From an uncultured Solirubrobacteraceae bacterium (GTDB lineage Bacteria > Actinomycetota > Thermoleophilia > Solirubrobacterales > Solirubrobacteraceae), in contig CAVSQM010000004.1 in assembly GCA_963730115.1 (NCBI GenBank), forward strand, positions 446,771 through 470,770: a DNA stretch of 24,000 nucleotides, read 5' to 3'. The position numbers were made by a program, and so were the translations under genes. Of the stretch, positions 19,460 through 24,000 are shown one piece after another. The notes below the pieces were generated by a model that was not told where the DNA came from, made no database searches, and saw nothing but the letters and a program-made list of their open reading frames with translations. Position 1 is the first letter of the stretch. Each line of letters begins with the position of its first letter.

Positions 19460-20644
19460 GTGGGAGACCGGGTGACGCTGCAGACCCTCGCCGACCGGCT
19501 CGGCGTCTCCCGCACCACCGCGTCGAACGCGTTCAACCGGCCCGACCAGCTGAACCCGGCGCTGCGCGAGAAGGTCCTCGCGCTCGCGGCCGAGCTCGGC
19601 TACGCGGGGCCCGACCCGGCCGGGCGGGCCCTGCGGTCCGGCCGGGCCGGCGCGATCGGCGTCCTCCTGACCGAGCGGCTCTCCTACGCGTTCGCCGATC
19701 CCGCCGCGGTGGCGACGCTGCGCGGCCTCGCCGTCGAGGCCGAGCAGTTCGGCATCTCGCTCTCGCTCCTCCCCGCCCCGCTCAGCGACGGCGTCGCCGA
19801 CCCCGCGGCCGTCCGGCACGCGCTCGTCGACGCCTGCTTCGTCTACGCGCTCCCCGCCGGCCACCCGAGCGTGCAGGCGGCGCTCGACCGGCACCTCCCG
19901 GTCGTCGTCTGCGACACGCCGCAGCTCGCCGGCGTCCCGTTCGTCTCGATCGACGACCGCGGCGGCGCCCGCGCCGCCGCGCAGCACGTGCTCGACCTCG
20001 GCCACCGCCGGCTCGTGATCGTCTCGCTGCGGATGCGCGACGACGGGCACCTCGGCTTCGCCGACGTCAACCGCCGCTGCGACCCCGCCTACCGCGTCAC
20101 CGCCGAGCGCCTCGGCGGCTACGAGGACGCGCTGACCGGCGCCGGCATCGGCTGGGACGAGGTGCCCGCCTACGAGGTCAACCAGAACGCCCGCGCGCTC
20201 GCCCGCGAGGCCCTGCCGGCGCTGCTCGAGCACCAGCCGACCGCGATCCTCGCGATGTCCGACGAGCTCGCGCTCGGCATCGTCGACGGCGCCCGCGCGG
20301 CCGGCATCGACGTGCCGCACGAGCTGTCGGTCGTCGGCTTCGACGACGCGCCACCCGCCGCGCCCCGACGCCTCACCACGATCCGCCAGCCGCTCGTCGA
20401 GAAGGGCCGCACCGCCGGCCGCATGCTGCTCGAGGCGATCGAGGGCGGCACGCCGGCGGACGTCGCCCTGCCGACCACGCTGGTCGTCCGCGAATCCACC
20501 GCGGAGCCGCTTGAGGCGGTGACCACCGCGCCGCCCCGGCGGGGGTCGCCGGCGCCGACCATGTCGCCGGACGCCGGGTCGCGGCGGACCGCCTGGGCGC
20601 CGCCGAAGAAGACGTTGAGCGACTCGAACAGGGCGACCTCGTAG
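19460..20644 (+). CDS. LacI-family transcriptional regulator (ORF as written; homology ends ~20503, expected stop missing)
   Basis: The HTH is VTLQTLADRLGVSRTTASNAFNRPDQLNPALREKVLALAAELGY, followed by a periplasmic-binding-protein-like core (ILAMSDELALGIVDGARAAGIDVPHELSVVGFDD...TTIRQPL...LVVREST). Start is GTG 19460 or GTG 19472 (GGGAG 5 nt upstream). The tail after ~20505 is antisense to the GGT gene and looks non-genuine. Confidence 0.8.
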   Translation: MGDRVTLQTLADRLGVSRTTASNAFNRPDQLNPALREKVLALAAELGYAGPDPAGRALRSGRAGAIGVLLTERLSYAFADPAAVATLRGLAVEAEQFGISLSLLPAPLSDGVADPAAVRHALVDACFVYALPAGHPSVQAALDRHLPVVVCDTPQLAGVPFVSIDDRGGARAAAQHVLDLGHRRLVIVSLRMRDDGHLGFADVNRRCDPAYRVTAERLGGYEDALTGAGIGWDEVPAYEVNQNARALAREALPALLEHQPTAILAMSDELALGIVDGARAAGIDVPHELSVVGFDDAPPAAPRRLTTIRQPLVEKGRTAGRMLLEAIEGGTPADVALPTTLVVRESTAEPLEAVTTAPPRRGSPAPTMSPDAGSRRTAWAPPKKTLSDSNRATS

Positions 20645-21984
20645 CCGGCGGTGGCGAGCGCGTCGGCGTCCGCTCCCGGCTCGGCGTAGACCGTCCCGGC
20701 CTCCCAGTGCACGCGCGGCGCCTCGACCGCGTCGACGAGGCTGAGCCCGCGGTCGATGACGCCGAGGATCACCTGCAGGATCGCCGAGCGGATGCGGTTC
20801 GAGCCCGCCGAGCCGAGCGCGAGCAGCACCTCGCCGTCGCGCTCCACCACCGTCGGCGCCATCATCGACGGCAGCCGCCGCCCCGGCGGGTGGGTGAAGA
20901 AGCCGAGCGGCGAGAGGTCCTCCTCGCCCATCATGTTGTTGAGGTGGATGCCGGTGCCGGGCACGATCACGCCCGAGCCCTCGCCGTTCGTGCACGTGAC
21001 CGCGCACGCCCGGCCGTCGCCGTCGAGCACCGAGATGTGCGTGGTCGAGCCGAGCTGGGAGGCCATGAACTCCTCGAGGAAGCCCGGCCGCGCGAGCCCT
21101 TCGAGGAACTCCGGCGTCCGCGCGCGCTGCGCCGCCTCCATCGCCGCCACCAGCTCCACCTCGCTGGGCGGACCGGCATCGCGCTCGAGCAGCGCGAGCA
21201 CGAAGGCGATGAGGATCCCGCCCGCCGACGGCGGCGGGTTGGTGAACACGTCGTGCCCGCGGTAGCGCACGCGGATCGGCTCGCGCGGGGTCGCCTCGTA
21301 GGCCGCGAGGTCGGCGAGCGTCAGCGTGCCCCCGCCTTCCGCCACGCGCTCGACGGCCGCCGCCGCGATGTCGCCCGTGTAGAACGGCGCCGCGCCCTCG
21401 GCGCCCAGCCGCTCGAGGGTGTCGGCCATCTCCGGGTCGGAGAGCACGTCGCCCTCGCGCGCCACGCGGTCGCCGAGCCAGTACTTCTCGCGCGCCTCCG
21501 GGCTCGAGCGGGTCAGCGGCGCGAGCAGGTCGAAGATGTAGGCCTGCTGCGCGTTGACCTCGACCCCCGCGCGCGCCAGCGCCGCGGCGGGCGCGACGAG
21601 CTCGGGCAGCGGCACCGACCCGTAGCGCGCGTGCGCCGCGCAGATCCCGGCCGGCGTGCCGTAGACCCCGCACGCGGCGGCGCCGACGTGGAACACCTGC
21701 GCGACCGTCCCGAAGAACACCTCGGCCGCCTCGAGCGGCGCGCGCGCCGACGGGTCGGCGCCGTCACCGGGCGCGGCCACGAAGAAGTCGAGCAGCGCCG
21801 GCTCCTCACCCGGCTCGGCGACGAGCATGTAGCCGCCGGCGCCGAGCCCGGTGAGCTGCGGCTCGGCCACGAACGATGCGGCCATGGCGGCGAGCGCCGC
21901 ATCGACCGCGTTGCCGCCGGCGCGCAGCACCTGCGCGCCGGCGTCGGCGGTGAGCGGATGGCCCGCGGCAACGACGCCCTTCAT
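20170..21984 (-). CDS. Gamma-glutamyltransferase family protein, cytoplasmic YwrD-like (ORF as written; homology ends ~20510, expected stop missing)
   Basis: It begins MKGVVAAGHPLTADAGAQVLRAGGNAVDAA with no signal peptide. It has the autoprocessing/nucleophile context QLGSTTHISVLD and LNNMMGEED, ending in GGAQAV..GAGDPRRGGAVV. The following ~110 aa are a low-complexity antisense read-through of the LacI gene. Confidence 0.8.
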   Translation of the reverse strand: MKGVVAAGHPLTADAGAQVLRAGGNAVDAALAAMAASFVAEPQLTGLGAGGYMLVAEPGEEPALLDFFVAAPGDGADPSARAPLEAAEVFFGTVAQVFHVGAAACGVYGTPAGICAAHARYGSVPLPELVAPAAALARAGVEVNAQQAYIFDLLAPLTRSSPEAREKYWLGDRVAREGDVLSDPEMADTLERLGAEGAAPFYTGDIAAAAVERVAEGGGTLTLADLAAYEATPREPIRVRYRGHDVFTNPPPSAGGILIAFVLALLERDAGPPSEVELVAAMEAAQRARTPEFLEGLARPGFLEEFMASQLGSTTHISVLDGDGRACAVTCTNGEGSGVIVPGTGIHLNNMMGEEDLSPLGFFTHPPGRRLPSMMAPTVVERDGEVLLALGSAGSNRIRSAILQVILGVIDRGLSLVDAVEAPRVHWEAGTVYAEPGADADALATAGYEVALFESLNVFFGGAQAVRRDPASGDMVGAGDPRRGGAVVTASSGSAVDSRTTSVVGRATSAGVPPSIASSSMRPAVRPFSTSGWRIVVRRRGAAGGASSKPTTDSSCGTSMPAARAPSTMPSASSSDIARIAVGWCSSSAGRASRASARAFWLTS

Positions 21985-22010: not shown

Positions 22011-22037
22011 CCCGGCCGAAGGATCCCTTCGGCCGGG
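22011..22037 (-). terminator. Perfect 12-bp GC-rich hairpin 8 nt downstream of the ftsZ stop
   Basis: CCCGGCCGAAGG-ATC-CCTTCGGCCGGG. It lies between the ftsZ stop (22046-22048) and the GGT start (21984). There is no U-tract. Confidence 0.55.
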
Positions 22038-22045
22038 CGCGGCGC

Positions 22046-23368
22046 CTAGAACCTCGGGATGAATTCGGGGACGTCGACGTCGATACGCGCCGACGGCCGG
22101 CCGTTGCGCGTCACGCGCGGCTCGCCCCGCGGCTCGGAGAAGCCGGACAGCCCGCGCCCCTCCTCCTCGCGGCGCGGCGGCCGGCGGTCGCCGTAGCCCG
22201 TCGCCACGACGGTGATCCAGACCTCGTCCTCGAGCTTGTCGTCGAGCATCGCCCCGAAGATGATGTTGGCCTCCGGGTGCGCCGCCTCCTGGACGGTCTT
22301 CGCGGCCTCGTTGACCTCCCACAGCGAGAGGTCGCGGCCGCCGGTGATCGACAGCAGGATCGAGCGCGCGCCCTCGACCGACGTCTCCAGCAGCGGCGAC
22401 TCGACGGCCTGACGTGCCGCGTCGACCGCCCGCGTCTCGCCGGTGCCCATGCCGATGCCGAGCAGCGCGTTGCCGGCGTCGGCCATGATCGTCCGCACGT
22501 CGGCGAAGTCGAGGTTGATCAGGCCCGGGAGCGTGATCAGGTCCGAGATGCCCTGGACGCCCTGGCGCAGGACGTCGTCGGCGACCCGGAACGCCTCGAC
22601 CATCGAGGTGTTCTTCTCGAGCACCGAGAGCAGGCGGTTGTTCGGCACCACGATGAGGGTGTCGACCTCCTCGCGCAGGGCCTCGATGCCCTTCTCGGCC
22701 GCGGCCAGGCGGCGCGAGCCCTCGAAGCCGAACGGCTTGGTGACCACGCCGACCGTCAACGCGCCGAGCTCGCGCGCGATCCGCGCGACCACCGGAGCGG
22801 CGCCCGTGCCGGTGCCCCCGCCCTCGCCGGCGGTGATGAACACCATGTCGGAGCCCTTGAGCAGCGACTTCGTGCGGTCGTAGTCCTCCATCGCGGCCGT
22901 GCGGCCGAGATCGGGATCGGAGCCGGAGCCCAGACCGCGCGTCGACTCGTTGCCGATCTGCAGGCACACGTGCGCGTCGGCGGACTGCAGCGACTGCGCG
23001 TCGGTGTTGACGGCGATGAACTCGACGCCCGACACCTCGGCCTCGATCATCCGGTTGACGGCGTTGACGCCGGCGCCGCCGACGCCGATGACGCGCAGCT
23101 GCGGCTTGCCGACCGGGCCCGCGCCGTCCCAGCTCGAGTACGGCTGCTCGACCGGCGGCGGCTCGGCGCGCGGCGGAGCCATCAGGTTCTCCGGCAGGTC
23201 CGAGGAGAAGGCGTGGCGCAGCCGCTCCTGCGGCGACGGGATCTTCCGCTGCTCGTCCTCGCCGGCAGGCTCGGCAGCCACGGGACTCTCTTCCAGCCCC
23301 TCCGTCTCCGTCTTGCGGAACAGGGCGGCGAGGGGGCCCTCGCGCATGCTCGCCCGCTTACCTGCCAT
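22046..23368 (-). CDS. ftsZ: Cell division protein FtsZ with an unusual ~90-aa N-terminal extension
   Basis: 440-aa ORF with VIGVGGAGVNAVNRM, FIAVNTDAQSL, the tubulin signature ITAGEGGGTGTGAAPVVA, NLDFADV and the C-terminal peptide DVPEFIPRF. AAGGAGG (23384-23378) lies 9 nt upstream of ATG 23368. Confidence 0.9.
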   Translation of the reverse strand: MAGKRASMREGPLAALFRKTETEGLEESPVAAEPAGEDEQRKIPSPQERLRHAFSSDLPENLMAPPRAEPPPVEQPYSSWDGAGPVGKPQLRVIGVGGAGVNAVNRMIEAEVSGVEFIAVNTDAQSLQSADAHVCLQIGNESTRGLGSGSDPDLGRTAAMEDYDRTKSLLKGSDMVFITAGEGGGTGTGAAPVVARIARELGALTVGVVTKPFGFEGSRRLAAAEKGIEALREEVDTLIVVPNNRLLSVLEKNTSMVEAFRVADDVLRQGVQGISDLITLPGLINLDFADVRTIMADAGNALLGIGMGTGETRAVDAARQAVESPLLETSVEGARSILLSITGGRDLSLWEVNEAAKTVQEAAHPEANIIFGAMLDDKLEDEVWITVVATGYGDRRPPRREEEGRGLSGFSEPRGEPRVTRNGRPSARIDVDVPEFIPRF

Positions 23369-24000
23369 TCGAGAGCACCTCCTTCGCCAGCTGGCGATAG
23401 GCGTCGGCAGCGGAGCCCGACGGGTCGTACTTCAGCACCGACATTCCCTTTACGGGGGCCTCCGCGAAGCGGATCGTCTTGCGGATCCGTGCGCCGAACA
23501 CGCGATCCCCGAAGTTCTCCTCGAGGATCTGGATCGCCTCCTTGGCGTGGAGGGTCCGCGAGTCGACCATCGTCGGCAGGATGCCGGCGATGTCCACGTC
23601 GGGATTGAGGTTCTCGCGGATCATCGAGAGCGTGTTCTGGAGCTGGATCAGCCCCCGCATCGACAGATACTCGCACTGCACGGGGACGATCACCTTGTCG
23701 GCCGCGGTCAGCGCGTTGATCGTCAATAGTCCCAGGGACGGCGGCGTATCGATGCAGACGAAGTCGTAGTCCTCGTCAACCACCCGCAGCGCCTTGTCCA
23801 GCGAGCGCTCGCGGCCGATCTTCGTCGACATCGCGATCTCCGCCCCGGCGAGGTCGATCGACGCGCACGCGATGTCGATCTCGCGCTTGCGGACCACCTC
23901 CCGGATGGAGAGGTCGTGCACGAGCACGTCGTACATCGACTTCTCGAGCCCGTCGGGGTCGATGCCCTGCGACATCGTGAGGTTGCCCTGCGGGTCCATG
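23358..24000 (-). CDS. ParA/Soj-family ATPase, C-terminal ~213 aa (gene continues beyond window end)
   Basis: (D)PQGNLT..., DFVCIDTPPSLGLLTINALTAADKVIVPVQCEYLSMRGL, ILPTMVDSRT, IRKTIRFAEAPVKGMSVLKYDPSGSAADAYRQLAKEVL. The Walker A region is outside the window. Confidence 0.85.
   Translation of the reverse strand, partial: MDPQGNLTMSQGIDPDGLEKSMYDVLVHDLSIREVVRKREIDIACASIDLAGAEIAMSTKIGRERSLDKALRVVDEDYDFVCIDTPPSLGLLTINALTAADKVIVPVQCEYLSMRGLIQLQNTLSMIRENLNPDVDIAGILPTMVDSRTLHAKEAIQILEENFGDRVFGARIRKTIRFAEAPVKGMSVLKYDPSGSAADAYRQLAKEVLSNGR

Follow-up and report, generated by a model that had tools for sequence, protein, structure and literature searches.

In the 24,000-nucleotide stretch of DNA analysed here (the window), the reverse strand carries an ftsZ gene directly downstream of a gene for a ParA-type ATPase. 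The features of the two genes and their junction are as follows.

22011..22037 (-): 12-bp G+C-rich hairpin, CCCGGCCGAAGG-GAT-CCTTCGGCCGGG, 9 nt past the ftsZ stop, read directly
22046..23368 (-): ftsZ, 440 codons plus stop, with TIGR00065, Pfam Tubulin and FtsZ_C matches
22049..22084 (-): conserved peptide at the FtsZ C-terminus, IDVDVPEFIPRF, where partners of FtsZ usually dock
22181..23098 (-): GTPase core and C-terminal domain of a canonical FtsZ, residues 91-396, from TIGR00065, Pfam and structure matches
23099..23368 (-): N-terminal extension, FtsZ residues 1-90, predicted to be intrinsically disordered
23186..23239 (-): motif 2, PSPQERLRHAFSSDLPEN (PSPQERLRHAFSS), FtsZ residues 44-61, a second conserved short helix-forming motif
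23306..23359 (-): motif 1, KRASMREGPLAALFRKTE, FtsZ residues 4-21, an invariant basic amphipathic peptide, candidate ParA-interaction or ATPase-activating peptide
23358..23368 (-): ftsZ start and parA end overlapping by 11 nt, with the parA stop TAA at 23360-23358
23378..23384 (-): Shine-Dalgarno (SD) sequence AAGGAGG of ftsZ, inside the last parA codons and 9 nt before ATG 23368
23358..24000 (-): 3' part of parA, 213 codons plus stop, orphan and Soj-like (PF13614 AAA_31, 2.5e-39), with the 5' end and its Walker A beyond the window edge

As the original prediction had it, the ORF 22046-23368(-) encodes a genuine FtsZ. It is an ordinary GTPase with an ordinary C-terminal docking peptide. Residues 88-396 match the NCBIfam model TIGR00065 (ftsZ) with 423 bits against a cut-off of 295, Pfam Tubulin (PF00091) and FtsZ_C (PF12327) are placed at residues 92-250 and 299-391, and the B. 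subtilis and M. tuberculosis FtsZ structures are matched with ~400 bits. The nucleotide-binding signature GGGTG[ST]G is present as GGGTGTG (residues 183-189) and the T7 loop N-x-D-x-x-D as NLDFAD (residues 285-290). Homologues repeatedly end in VPEF[IM]P, and the variable linker before this C-terminal peptide is only 34% identical. The core had been read as starting around residue 91, and we place LRVIGVGGAG at residues 91-100; in the B. subtilis and M. tuberculosis structures this motif lies at residue 10-14, and 90 residues precede the core in the window FtsZ instead of the ~10 typical of actinobacteria. The hairpin past the ftsZ stop may be a terminator without a U-tract or an mRNA-stabilising stem which ends the parA-ftsZ unit; a consensus terminator scan, in which a T-run is required, gave it no score, and the consensus promoter and terminator scan of the parA-ftsZ locus returned no matches.

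The upstream ORF 23358-23999(-), which is cut by the window edge, encodes the ParA/Soj-family ATPase that had been proposed there. We took its full 254-aa sequence from the near-identical contig L081, where a deviant Walker A with the signature lysine is present as NQKGGVAKTT (KGGVAKT) at a site outside the window. The solved proteins closest to it are M. smegmatis 4pfs with 214 bits, M. xanthus ParA 8ray with 202 bits and T. thermophilus Soj 1wcv with 180 bits, and its similarity to the last two covers the entire protein. K215 and R218 fall opposite the R-x-x-R of T. thermophilus Soj PRNVRLAEAP, and by this alignment the putatively DNA-binding basic residues of ParA occupy the non-specific DNA-binding positions of Soj. 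M. xanthus ParA binds the ParB N-terminal peptide in a hydrophobic pocket (PMC12462528), and the ParA studied here is hydrophobic at 6/6 of the peptide-binding positions (I96, L130, L132, I135, M167 and L172). A pocket of this kind is shared among Soj-type ParAs, so its presence does not mark out FtsZ in particular as what it binds. The C-terminus (...AKEVLSNGR) carries no amphipathic tail of the kind that forms a MinD-type membrane helix, and the minD models gave 17-47 bits, far under their cut-offs. An identification as MipZ was rejected, with PF09140 reaching 23 bits over 81 residues versus 135 bits for AAA_31 and no MipZ chain among the PDB matches of ParA at E<=1e-10. An identification as PldP orthologue was also considered; the best PDB relative, 4pfs, is by gene context the Rv3213c orthologue, and since the similar scores of 4pfs and 8ray do not separate 4pfs from canonical ParA, we claim orthology of the window ParA neither to PldP nor to the Rv3213c family.

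Conservation of the gene pair and of the FtsZ extension

The genes parA and ftsZ are a conserved, translationally coupled two-gene module of Solirubrobacterales. In 80/80 related loci of this order parA lies directly 5' of ftsZ, a synteny whose conservation in relatives had been put forward as a check, and ParA identity across the order is 82-96%. The AAGGAGG 9 nt upstream of ATG 23368 and the 11-nt overlap with parA, both read from the sequence in the original prediction, were found again at 23384-23378 and at the stop TAA 23360-23358. Among relatives, the GGAGG core stands at an equal distance from the ftsZ start in 69 of 81 homologous loci, and the two genes overlap by 8-17 nt in 68 of the 70 loci for which the position of each end was settled. 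A divergent response regulator 5' of parA was considered as part of the module and discarded, being unconserved beyond the closest relatives.

Neither parB nor dcw genes were detected in the window or in contig L081, and domain searches concur with the earlier observation that the window has no parB between parA and ftsZ and no flanking dcw genes. Within 10 kb in the 80 loci, the ParB domain, the GERRxRA box and the GLGRGL peptide are absent, no dcw gene occurs near ftsZ, and the gene downstream of parA is ftsZ rather than a cognate parB. In actinobacteria, ftsZ typically closes the dcw cluster and has divIVA close by (PMC4255298), a placement that was not found in the 10 kb around the gene in any of these loci. 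Actinobacteria generally retain canonical ParABS (PMC4255298), and this ParA could have a ParB partner elsewhere or could be co-expressed with ftsZ for other reasons.

The extension, whose conservation in orthologues had been named as a check, is found in 80/80 related genomes, with a length of 95-179 aa in the 50 homologues measured; the same tail together with the same parA-ftsZ junction in all 80 is far beyond chance. No family in Pfam or NCBIfam matches FtsZ residues 1-90, and a profile of the tail matched nothing in the PDB at E<=10. Against 1.84 billion representatives the tail profile gave 762 matches, of which the best 150 are all FtsZ N-termini. Many of these best 150 come from fragments or frameshifted contigs.

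That third codon positions stay G/C-rich through the extension was confirmed by a GC3 of 0.92 in frame versus 0.55 and 0.76 in the other two frames. No other segment of FtsZ is as conserved as motif 1, whose mean identity to the window is 97%; the GTPase core reaches 81% and the linkers 24-30%. Every codon of motif 1 has 2-5 synonymous variants while its amino acids are invariant, so it is the protein that is under selection, including the residues 5' of Met8. This codon-level evidence supports the view, already taken in the original prediction, that translation of the extension starts at ATG 23368 and not at Met63, both conserved motifs lying 5' of Met63. It also shows strong selection on the extension as a protein. 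A mis-called start, with translation from Met8 or Met63 and non-coding DNA 5' of it, is highly improbable and was rejected, since, although Met8 is invariant and is chosen by gene callers in 9/120 database homologues, R5, A6 and S7 are invariant with 4-5 codons each (serine in both codon families), a strong SD precedes Met1 by 9 nt, Met8 has none in front of it, and Met63 would leave out motifs 1 and 2.

According to AlphaFold2, the extension has pLDDT values of 36-54 with short helices at residues 13-18 and 46-54, the values around the former being <50, and neither tail motif packs confidently on the FtsZ core. In motif 2, P46, R49, L50 and F54 are invariant and a helix is predicted at 46-54; its pLDDT is ~71 in the ParA-tail fusion model versus ~54 in FtsZ alone, a rise that pLDDT alone does not explain. 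In motif 1, an unbroken run of 16 residues is essentially invariant on every side of the helix, and this constraint (A14, A15, R18, K19, T20) fits a groove-bound peptide. FtsZ residues 1-21 have a net charge of +3.

Readings of the invariant N-terminal peptide

Known ParA/MinD partners act via a positively charged, disordered N-terminus, and the genes of the ATPases are usually found close to cargo loci, ParB and MinE being examples of known partners whose gene comes directly after that of the ATPase (PMC10241942). The data support that the FtsZ extension shows the generic hallmarks of such a partner peptide: an extreme N-terminal position, disorder, a charge of +3, a short amphipathic helix, and a gene directly 3' of the ATPase gene. 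The order-wide coupling of parA and ftsZ suggests direct action of ParA on FtsZ. We infer, with a confidence that stops just short of an even chance, that FtsZ carries its own ParA-partner peptide, which would bind ParA, stimulate its ATPase and serve positioning of a positive or inhibitory kind. In an AlphaFold2 model of monomeric ParA that runs on into the FtsZ tail, as a natural frameshift makes it do in P0185(1-344), ParA is well folded and motif 1 is not confidently docked, being mostly at pLDDT <50, with only residues 274-278 >50.

The undocked state of motif 1 in this monomeric-ParA model would also be expected if motif 1 were a membrane-targeting amphipathic helix or a dock for another division protein, either of them holding FtsZ by way of the long flexible linker, with ParA only co-expressed or using another FtsZ surface. 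The membrane-targeting sequences of MinD, FtsA and SepF are short, basic, amphipathic and terminal, as is KRASMREGPLAALFRKTE, which moreover sits on a long disordered linker in a protein whose gene lies away from the dcw genes, so that the usual ftsZ neighbours are absent. However, membrane helices usually keep their amphipathicity and not each residue, whereas here 16 residues are essentially invariant although synonymous changes occur freely; FtsZ has kept the canonical C-terminal peptide by which membrane anchors are recruited; and the strict translational coupling of parA and ftsZ in 80/80 genomes would be left unexplained. We regard this reading as rather unlikely, though it fares best among the alternatives.

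Less probable still is that any effect of ParA on FtsZ is exerted through the globular domain in a MipZ-like manner. The ParA-like MipZ works on FtsZ filament ends and not on a tail (PMC9897490), the N-terminal FtsZ peptide of Anabaena is required for normal polymerisation (PMC6175996), and it was motif 2, not motif 1, that gained confidence in the ParA-tail fusion model. Against this stand the AlphaFold2 result that neither motif is confidently packed on the FtsZ core and the fact that the ParA is not MipZ-like (PF09140 23 bits versus AAA_31 135, no MipZ among the PDB matches). The cyanobacterial FtsZ N-terminal peptide is also not known to be linked to a parA gene.

A further reading concerns origin, namely that a parAB operon once had the 5' end of its parB joined to ftsZ (parA-parB'::ftsZ) and that the tail is what is left of it. 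It is compatible with a ParA-partner peptide on FtsZ, and in itself we hold it to be doubtful, at a level slightly below that of a MipZ-like action. The original prediction had named a parB'-ftsZ fusion as its alternative; in its favour, the gene order and overlap are typical of parA-parB junctions. Actinobacterial ParB N-peptides carry G-L-A-A-L-I, and motif 1 has L-A-A-L-[IF] in common with ParB N-peptides. Its residues L13, L16 and F17 repeat the i, i+3, i+4 spacing of ParB L15, L18 and I19, a point that, like the gapped match below, counts for the ParA-partner reading. As for the proposed likeness of the tail to the ParB N-terminal peptide, the generic traits hold and the specific likeness is only weak: five ParB N-termini were used for comparison, the consensus looked for was L-G-[RK]-G-L-x-A-L-[LI], and motif 1 scored at chance level against the ParB N-peptide PSSM when ungapped (p=0.40) and at p=0.017-0.037 when one residue (P12) was allowed as an insertion. 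For IPSPQERLRHAF, previously likened to the PNP-x-QPR box of ParB, the comparison of motif 2 with that box came out no better than shuffles (p=0.7-0.9), and without this box the idea of a parB'-ftsZ fusion is weakened. The profile comparison of the extension with ParB, suggested as a check, likewise gave no match by Pfam, NCBIfam, PDB profile search or hhalign: Pfam ParBc, and with it a ParB/Srx CTPase domain, was not detected in the extension, the tail profile gave no signal from PDB ParB chains with their N-termini included, and hhalign returned no alignment between the tail and the five ParB N-termini.

A possible two-gene positioning system and its closest relatives

Returning to an FtsZ that carries its own ParA-partner peptide, we consider it possible, somewhat more tentatively than the peptide itself, that FtsZ serves ParA as cargo and at the same time as the partner that activates its ATPase, in a self-contained two-gene system for division-site positioning, conserved across Solirubrobacterales. 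Such a system would do without MinCDE, Noc, MipZ-ParB or PomXY adaptors. In this scheme, FtsZ has acquired a disordered tail of 90-180 residues with motif 1 at the tip and motif 2 further in, and the Soj-like ParA would bind ATP, dimerise and coat the nucleoid non-specifically. FtsZ filaments would be tethered to nucleoid-bound ParA and would stimulate ATP hydrolysis and ParA release; since an FtsZ polymer would display many peptides, it would act as a multivalent ParA cargo, and the ParA gradient would position the Z-ring relative to the nucleoid without a separate adaptor. Literature searches on Solirubrobacter or Thermoleophilia FtsZ and ParA returned nothing relevant, and an FtsZ with a built-in ParA-partner peptide is undescribed in the searchable literature.

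To our knowledge, actinobacteria have neither MinCDE nor Noc, and the choice of their division site is a long-standing gap; we also know of no identified activating partners for the orphan actinobacterial ParA-like ATPases PldP, Rv3213c and Rv1708. The locus offers a testable candidate here, an order-wide coupled ParA-FtsZ pair whose FtsZ has an invariant N-terminal peptide of the ParA/MinD-partner kind, and if it acts as proposed, FtsZ or the divisome could be the missing partner class for ATPases such as PldP. Should the interaction prove real, no simpler connection from a ParA gradient to the Z-ring is known: the target itself would carry the fused adaptor, and nature would have its own version of the engineered FtsZ tethers. 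The pair would also lend itself to reconstitution as a compact system, with Conexibacter and Solirubrobacter as culturable hosts. Even if the interaction were not real, the invariant motifs would still point to partners of FtsZ in a lineage that is very abundant in soil.

Among known systems, the FtsZ of heterocyst-forming cyanobacteria differs in that its extension has ~50 residues, is unrelated in sequence, has no parA link, and is implicated in polymerisation and partner contacts, not in ATPase activation. It resembles the present case as a lineage-specific conserved N-terminal extension on a canonical FtsZ that is relevant to division (PMC6175996). PldP of Corynebacterium glutamicum and the Rv3213c family (4pfs) are, like the ParA described here, Soj-like ATPases without an encoded parB; their genes, however, do not adjoin ftsZ, and the FtsZ of these organisms has no tail. 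PldP is nucleoid-associated and septum-enriched, has a division-site phenotype, and is not stimulated by ParB, its activating partner being unidentified (bioRxiv 10.1101/2025.07.02.662783).

MipZ of Caulobacter and MinCDE share with the proposed system a ParA/MinD-family ATPase that governs the site of FtsZ polymerisation, and MipZ contacts FtsZ directly (PMC9897490). Unlike the system proposed here, MipZ requires ParB and works at the plus-end of the FtsZ filament, and MinD acts via MinC and the membrane, whereas the window ParA is Soj-like and has no C-terminal membrane helix; in both cases FtsZ is without an N-terminal tail. In the PomXYZ system of M. xanthus, an N-terminal peptide of PomX activates the ParA/MinD ATPase PomZ (PMC7993993, PMC13170346). 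A nucleoid-bound ParA-like ATPase that places the Z-ring and is activated by a short N-terminal peptide of its cargo protein would be common to both. The Pom cargo, however, is a PomX/PomY condensate to which FtsZ is then recruited, while here the peptide would be on FtsZ itself with no adaptor genes, and no sequence similarity to PomX exists.

As for ParABS, the carrier of the peptide here is FtsZ and not a CTP-dependent DNA clamp, with no ParB/Srx domain, HTH domain or parS logic. The ParA-binding peptide of M. xanthus ParB comprises residues 11-19, L-G-R-G-L-x-A-L-I (PMC12462528); motif 1 needs the one-residue insertion at Pro12 to align with ParB, and its basic residue is out of register with ParB R13. 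The two share a Soj-type ParA whose pocket residues are the same, a partner gene directly downstream that overlaps parA, a partner peptide at the very N-terminal end of a region that is disordered and positively charged, and a hydrophobic i, i+3, i+4 triad with basic residues following or flanking it.

FtsZ and its extended N terminus

The features at the parA-ftsZ junction are as follows.

22046-23368, minus strand: ftsZ ORF, 440 residues
Upstream of ftsZ, minus strand: 3' part of parA, 213 codons visible, encoding a ParA/AAA_31 ATPase
23360-23358, minus strand: parA stop codon, in an 11-nt overlap with the ftsZ ATG at 23368
23384-23378, minus strand: Shine-Dalgarno sequence AAGGAGG, 9 nt ahead of the ATG at 23368

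Judged by its sequence, the window protein is a standard FtsZ with 90 extra residues in front. The NCBIfam FtsZ equivalog matches residues 88 to 396 with 423 bits (cut-off, 295), the Pfam models Tubulin and FtsZ_C match residues 92 to 250 and 299 to 391, and the FtsZ structures of B. subtilis and M. tuberculosis score ~400 bits, their residues 10 to 14 aligning with residues 87 to 91 here. The GGGTGTG signature lies at residues 183 to 189, the T7 loop NLDFAD at residues 285 to 290, and the C-terminal peptide is IDVDVPEFIPRF. The Pfam and NCBIfam models gave no match to the 90 extra N-terminal residues.

Scanning one genome per species identified 80 homologous loci, nearly all labeled Solirubrobacterales, Solirubrobacteraceae, Conexibacter, or Paraconexibacter, the remainder being a few broader actinobacterial labels and one, evidently wrong, of Bifidobacterium. 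All 80 align to the query FtsZ from residue 1 to 4 through to the end, with 59% to 91% identity, and all 80 carry parA directly upstream (79 to 96% identity, and at least 82% wherever the complete 213-aa fragment aligned). The extension and the parA-ftsZ synteny, whose conservation among orthologs the original prediction had proposed to check, are thus kept throughout. An alignment of 81 proteins resolves the tail into two conserved islands within unconstrained acidic, proline-rich linkers.

Conservation along FtsZ (mean identity to the window sequence, 81 proteins)
Residues 4-21: motif 1, KRASMREGPLAALFRKTE, 97%
Residues 22-43: linker 1, 24%
Residues 44-61: motif 2, PSPQERLRHAFSSDLPEN, 79%
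Residues 62-87: linker 2, 30%
Residues 88-396: GTPase core, 81%

Except for Met8, each motif-1 codon occurs in two to five synonymous variants (AGC, AGT, TCC, TCG, and TCT for Ser7) while the amino acids are unchanged, and from this codon pattern we conclude that motif 1 is under protein-level purifying selection. In the codon comparison, the same holds for R5, A6, and S7, which precede the invariant Met8. GGAGG is found at a fixed distance from the ftsZ start in 69 of 81 loci, the ATG overlaps the parA stop by 8 to 17 nt in 68 of 70, and the in-frame GC3 of the extension is 0.92. Because of the selection upstream of Met8 and the position of the Shine-Dalgarno sequence, translation is placed at Met1; an internal start at Met63, and a mis-called ftsZ start in general, are excluded. 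What the original prediction had observed, namely, the ftsZ identity, the long coding extension, the Shine-Dalgarno sequence, the 11-nt overlap, and the G/C-rich third positions, was correct throughout. About 9 of 120 database FtsZ homologues are annotated from Met8 (MREGPL...; e.g., P0008, P0011, P0027, P0057, P0058, P0089, P0117, and P0120), which removes the conserved KRAS residues.

In the 50 homologues where it was measurable, the tail spans 95 to 179 residues. A third motif, [RD][ED]SG[LV]PHP[AS]L, lies between motifs 1 and 2 in 55 of 81 tails (e.g., at loci L017, L018, and L053) and is absent from the short-linker lineage of the window, so the tail is modular. AlphaFold2 predicts the tail of full-length FtsZ to be disordered (pLDDT, 36 to 54), with short helices at residues 13 to 18 and 46 to 54, and does not pack it against the core with confidence. 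Given the conservation islands and the predicted disorder, the tail looks like a disordered region with candidate short linear binding motifs.

Gene neighborhood

On the 426-kb ENA soil-metagenome contig L081, 98.6% identical to the window, parA is complete (254 aa); a divergent response-regulator gene lies upstream and a gene for gamma-glutamyltranspeptidase (ggt) downstream. The block conserved across the order is parA-ftsZ-ggt, with ggt present in 77 of 80 loci. Farther neighbors encode an RpoD-type sigma factor, a PilT-like ATPase, ArsA-like ATPases, an HxlR regulator, and a Lon-N-domain protein. The originally noted absence of a parB between parA and ftsZ and of dcw genes flanking ftsZ holds at all 80 loci, where none of dcw, sepF, divIVA, or parB occurs within 10 kb of parA-ftsZ.

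An upstream neighborhood 3 to 7 kb from parA, conserved in about half of the order, contains the sigma factor (regions 1.1 to 4), the PilT-like T2SSE ATPase, one or two ArsA-like ATPases, the HxlR regulator, and a 473-aa protein that matches no Pfam model (e.g., L052 3372-4487, L055 4527-5723, L015 7105-8304, and L065 6479-7900). The 123-aa stand-alone receiver gene (L081 8789-9160 and contig L082 4462-4833, both minus strand) diverges from parA across an 86-bp gap; since it had no match in the 80 loci at E≤1e-8, it probably does not belong to the module. An extracellular contractile injection system/phage-tail-like cluster (Phage_sheath_1, Pvc16_N, AAA ATPase, and eCIS_core), present in few related loci, occupies L081 1-4630, ~5 kb upstream of parA and outside the window.

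Nine nucleotides past the ftsZ stop lies a hairpin (22011-22037, minus strand) whose 12-bp G+C-rich stem is perfectly paired around a loop of 3 nt. It has no T-run and may be a terminator lacking a U-tract; a consensus terminator scan did not flag it, and the ggt ORF starts ~26 nt beyond. The convergent ggt (20170-21984, 604 aa) and lacI-family (19460-20644, 394 aa) ORFs overlap by ~475 nt (20170-20644), both with implausible C-terminal tails, and the genes called at this site in L081/L082 (98.6% identical contigs) do not overlap. The 23 gap openings in 12 kb between the window and L081 suggest that one of the two assemblies contains indel errors or frameshifts. Many FtsZ entries from long-read metagenome-assembled genomes are frameshifted, and we rejected as frameshift/assembly artefacts the apparent ParA-FtsZ fusions P0185, P0129, and P0248, joined at the parA/ftsZ overlap, and P0271, a ParA with an internal duplication.

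The ATPase and the resemblance of motif 1 to ParB

The full ParA carries a deviant Walker A motif, KGGVAKT, which includes the signature lysine; it lacks a MinD-type C-terminal helix over its full sequence, and matches MipZ only marginally in Pfam. Among solved structures, it scores best against M. smegmatis 4pfs (214 bits), followed by M. xanthus ParA 8ray (202 bits) and T. thermophilus Soj (180 bits). Gene context identifies 4pfs as the orthologue of Rv3213c, an orphan mycobacterial ParA. The structures 4pfs, 5ihp, and 5if9 carry the PDB title "cobyrinic acid a,c-diamide synthase," and sequence and gene context identify them as the Rv3213c-type orphan ParA of mycobacteria, whose M. smegmatis gene (L083 6001-6807) neighbors whiB, entC-like, gpm2-like, and rhlE-like genes.

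In M. xanthus, ParA residues V116, L150, L152, L155, L187, and L192 make up a hydrophobic pocket to which L11, L15, L18, and I19 of ParB bind, and ParB(1-20) with DNA stimulates the ParA ATPase (PMC12462528). The positions corresponding to the pocket here, from the alignment with 8ray, are I96, L130, L132, I135, M167, and L172, all hydrophobic and invariant or nearly so across the order, and K215 and R218 are aligned to the basic residues in the DNA-binding segment of Soj. With the Walker A lysine, the pocket, and K215/R218, this ParA would be equipped for nucleoid binding and peptide activation, features generic to Soj-type ParAs.

Partner proteins of ParA/MinD ATPases share N-terminal, disordered, positively charged segments and are encoded near the ATPase (PMC10241942; for PomX, PMC7993993). 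The motif-1 peptide agrees with this generic description, since it lies at the extreme N terminus, is disordered, has a net charge of +3 across 21 residues, and belongs to a protein whose gene directly follows that of the ATPase, and the spacing of L13, L16, and F17 is that of ParB L15, L18, and I19 (i, i+3, i+4). Beyond these generic traits, the specific likeness to the ParB N-terminal peptide seen in the original prediction is weak. A search of the PDB with the tail profile retrieved no ParB at E≤10, even though the ParB N-peptide is present in chains such as 1vz0, and hhalign aligned nothing between the tail and five ParB N termini, of which those of B. subtilis and T. thermophilus were largely verified. 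A BLOSUM-averaged ParB-peptide PSSM scored motif 1 at chance without gaps (P = 0.40), reaching P = 0.017 to 0.037 only with Pro12 treated as an insertion. The proposed correspondence of IPSPQERLRHAF to the ParB PNP-x-QPR box is no better than that of shuffles (P = 0.7 to 0.9). Because of this weak ParB-specific similarity and the chance-level box match, an origin as a parB'-ftsZ fusion is possible and thinly supported.

Possible roles of the tail and related systems

We tentatively favor a direct interaction of the FtsZ tail with ParA. A ParA-partner peptide would then be built into the FtsZ of this order: ParA-ATP dimers bound to the nucleoid would hold FtsZ via motif 1, multivalent FtsZ polymers would stimulate ParA turnover, and the resulting ParA gradient would place FtsZ polymers relative to the nucleoid. 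AlphaFold2 was used to predict the structure of residues 1 to 344 of the database protein P0185, where ParA and the FtsZ tail are joined by a frameshift within the overlap; the input alignment combined ParAs of Solirubrobacterales and mycobacteria with FtsZ tails. The ParA part reached a pLDDT of ~90; motif 1 formed a helix mostly below 50, with only residues 274 to 278 above. The model thus lends the interaction no support, but it is of a monomer, whereas the site known to bind the peptide extends across the dimer interface. Motif 2 rose to ~71 from ~54 in FtsZ alone, values that are per-residue confidence and carry no contacts.

The main alternative, in which motif 1 anchors FtsZ to the membrane or binds a different division protein, is rather unlikely; motif 1 is almost invariant on every face of the helix and the parA-ftsZ coupling is strict, both of which argue against a simple membrane helix. 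Regulation of FtsZ assembly in cis by the tail, as described for the N-terminal region of cyanobacterial FtsZ (PMC6175996), appears quite improbable.

Our literature search turned up no work on the FtsZ or ParA proteins of Solirubrobacter or Thermoleophilia, nor any description of an FtsZ bearing a ParA-partner peptide. Related systems are known: MipZ is in direct contact with FtsZ (PMC9897490), corynebacterial ParB is reported to interact with FtsZ (PMC4255298), and C. glutamicum PldP is a septum-enriched orphan ParA whose activator is unknown (bioRxiv 10.1101/2025.07.02.662783). Since ParABS was reported in all of ~100 surveyed actinobacterial genomes, Conexibacter woesei included (PMC4255298), the genomes with the parA-ftsZ pair likely also keep a canonical parAB. 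With no prior report and such relatives, we class the arrangement of parA and the FtsZ tail as a variation on the ParA/MinD positioning theme and not as a separate category: a direct interaction of the tail with ParA would follow a logic similar to that of PomXYZ and ParABS, with the difference that here the adaptor is fused to the target.
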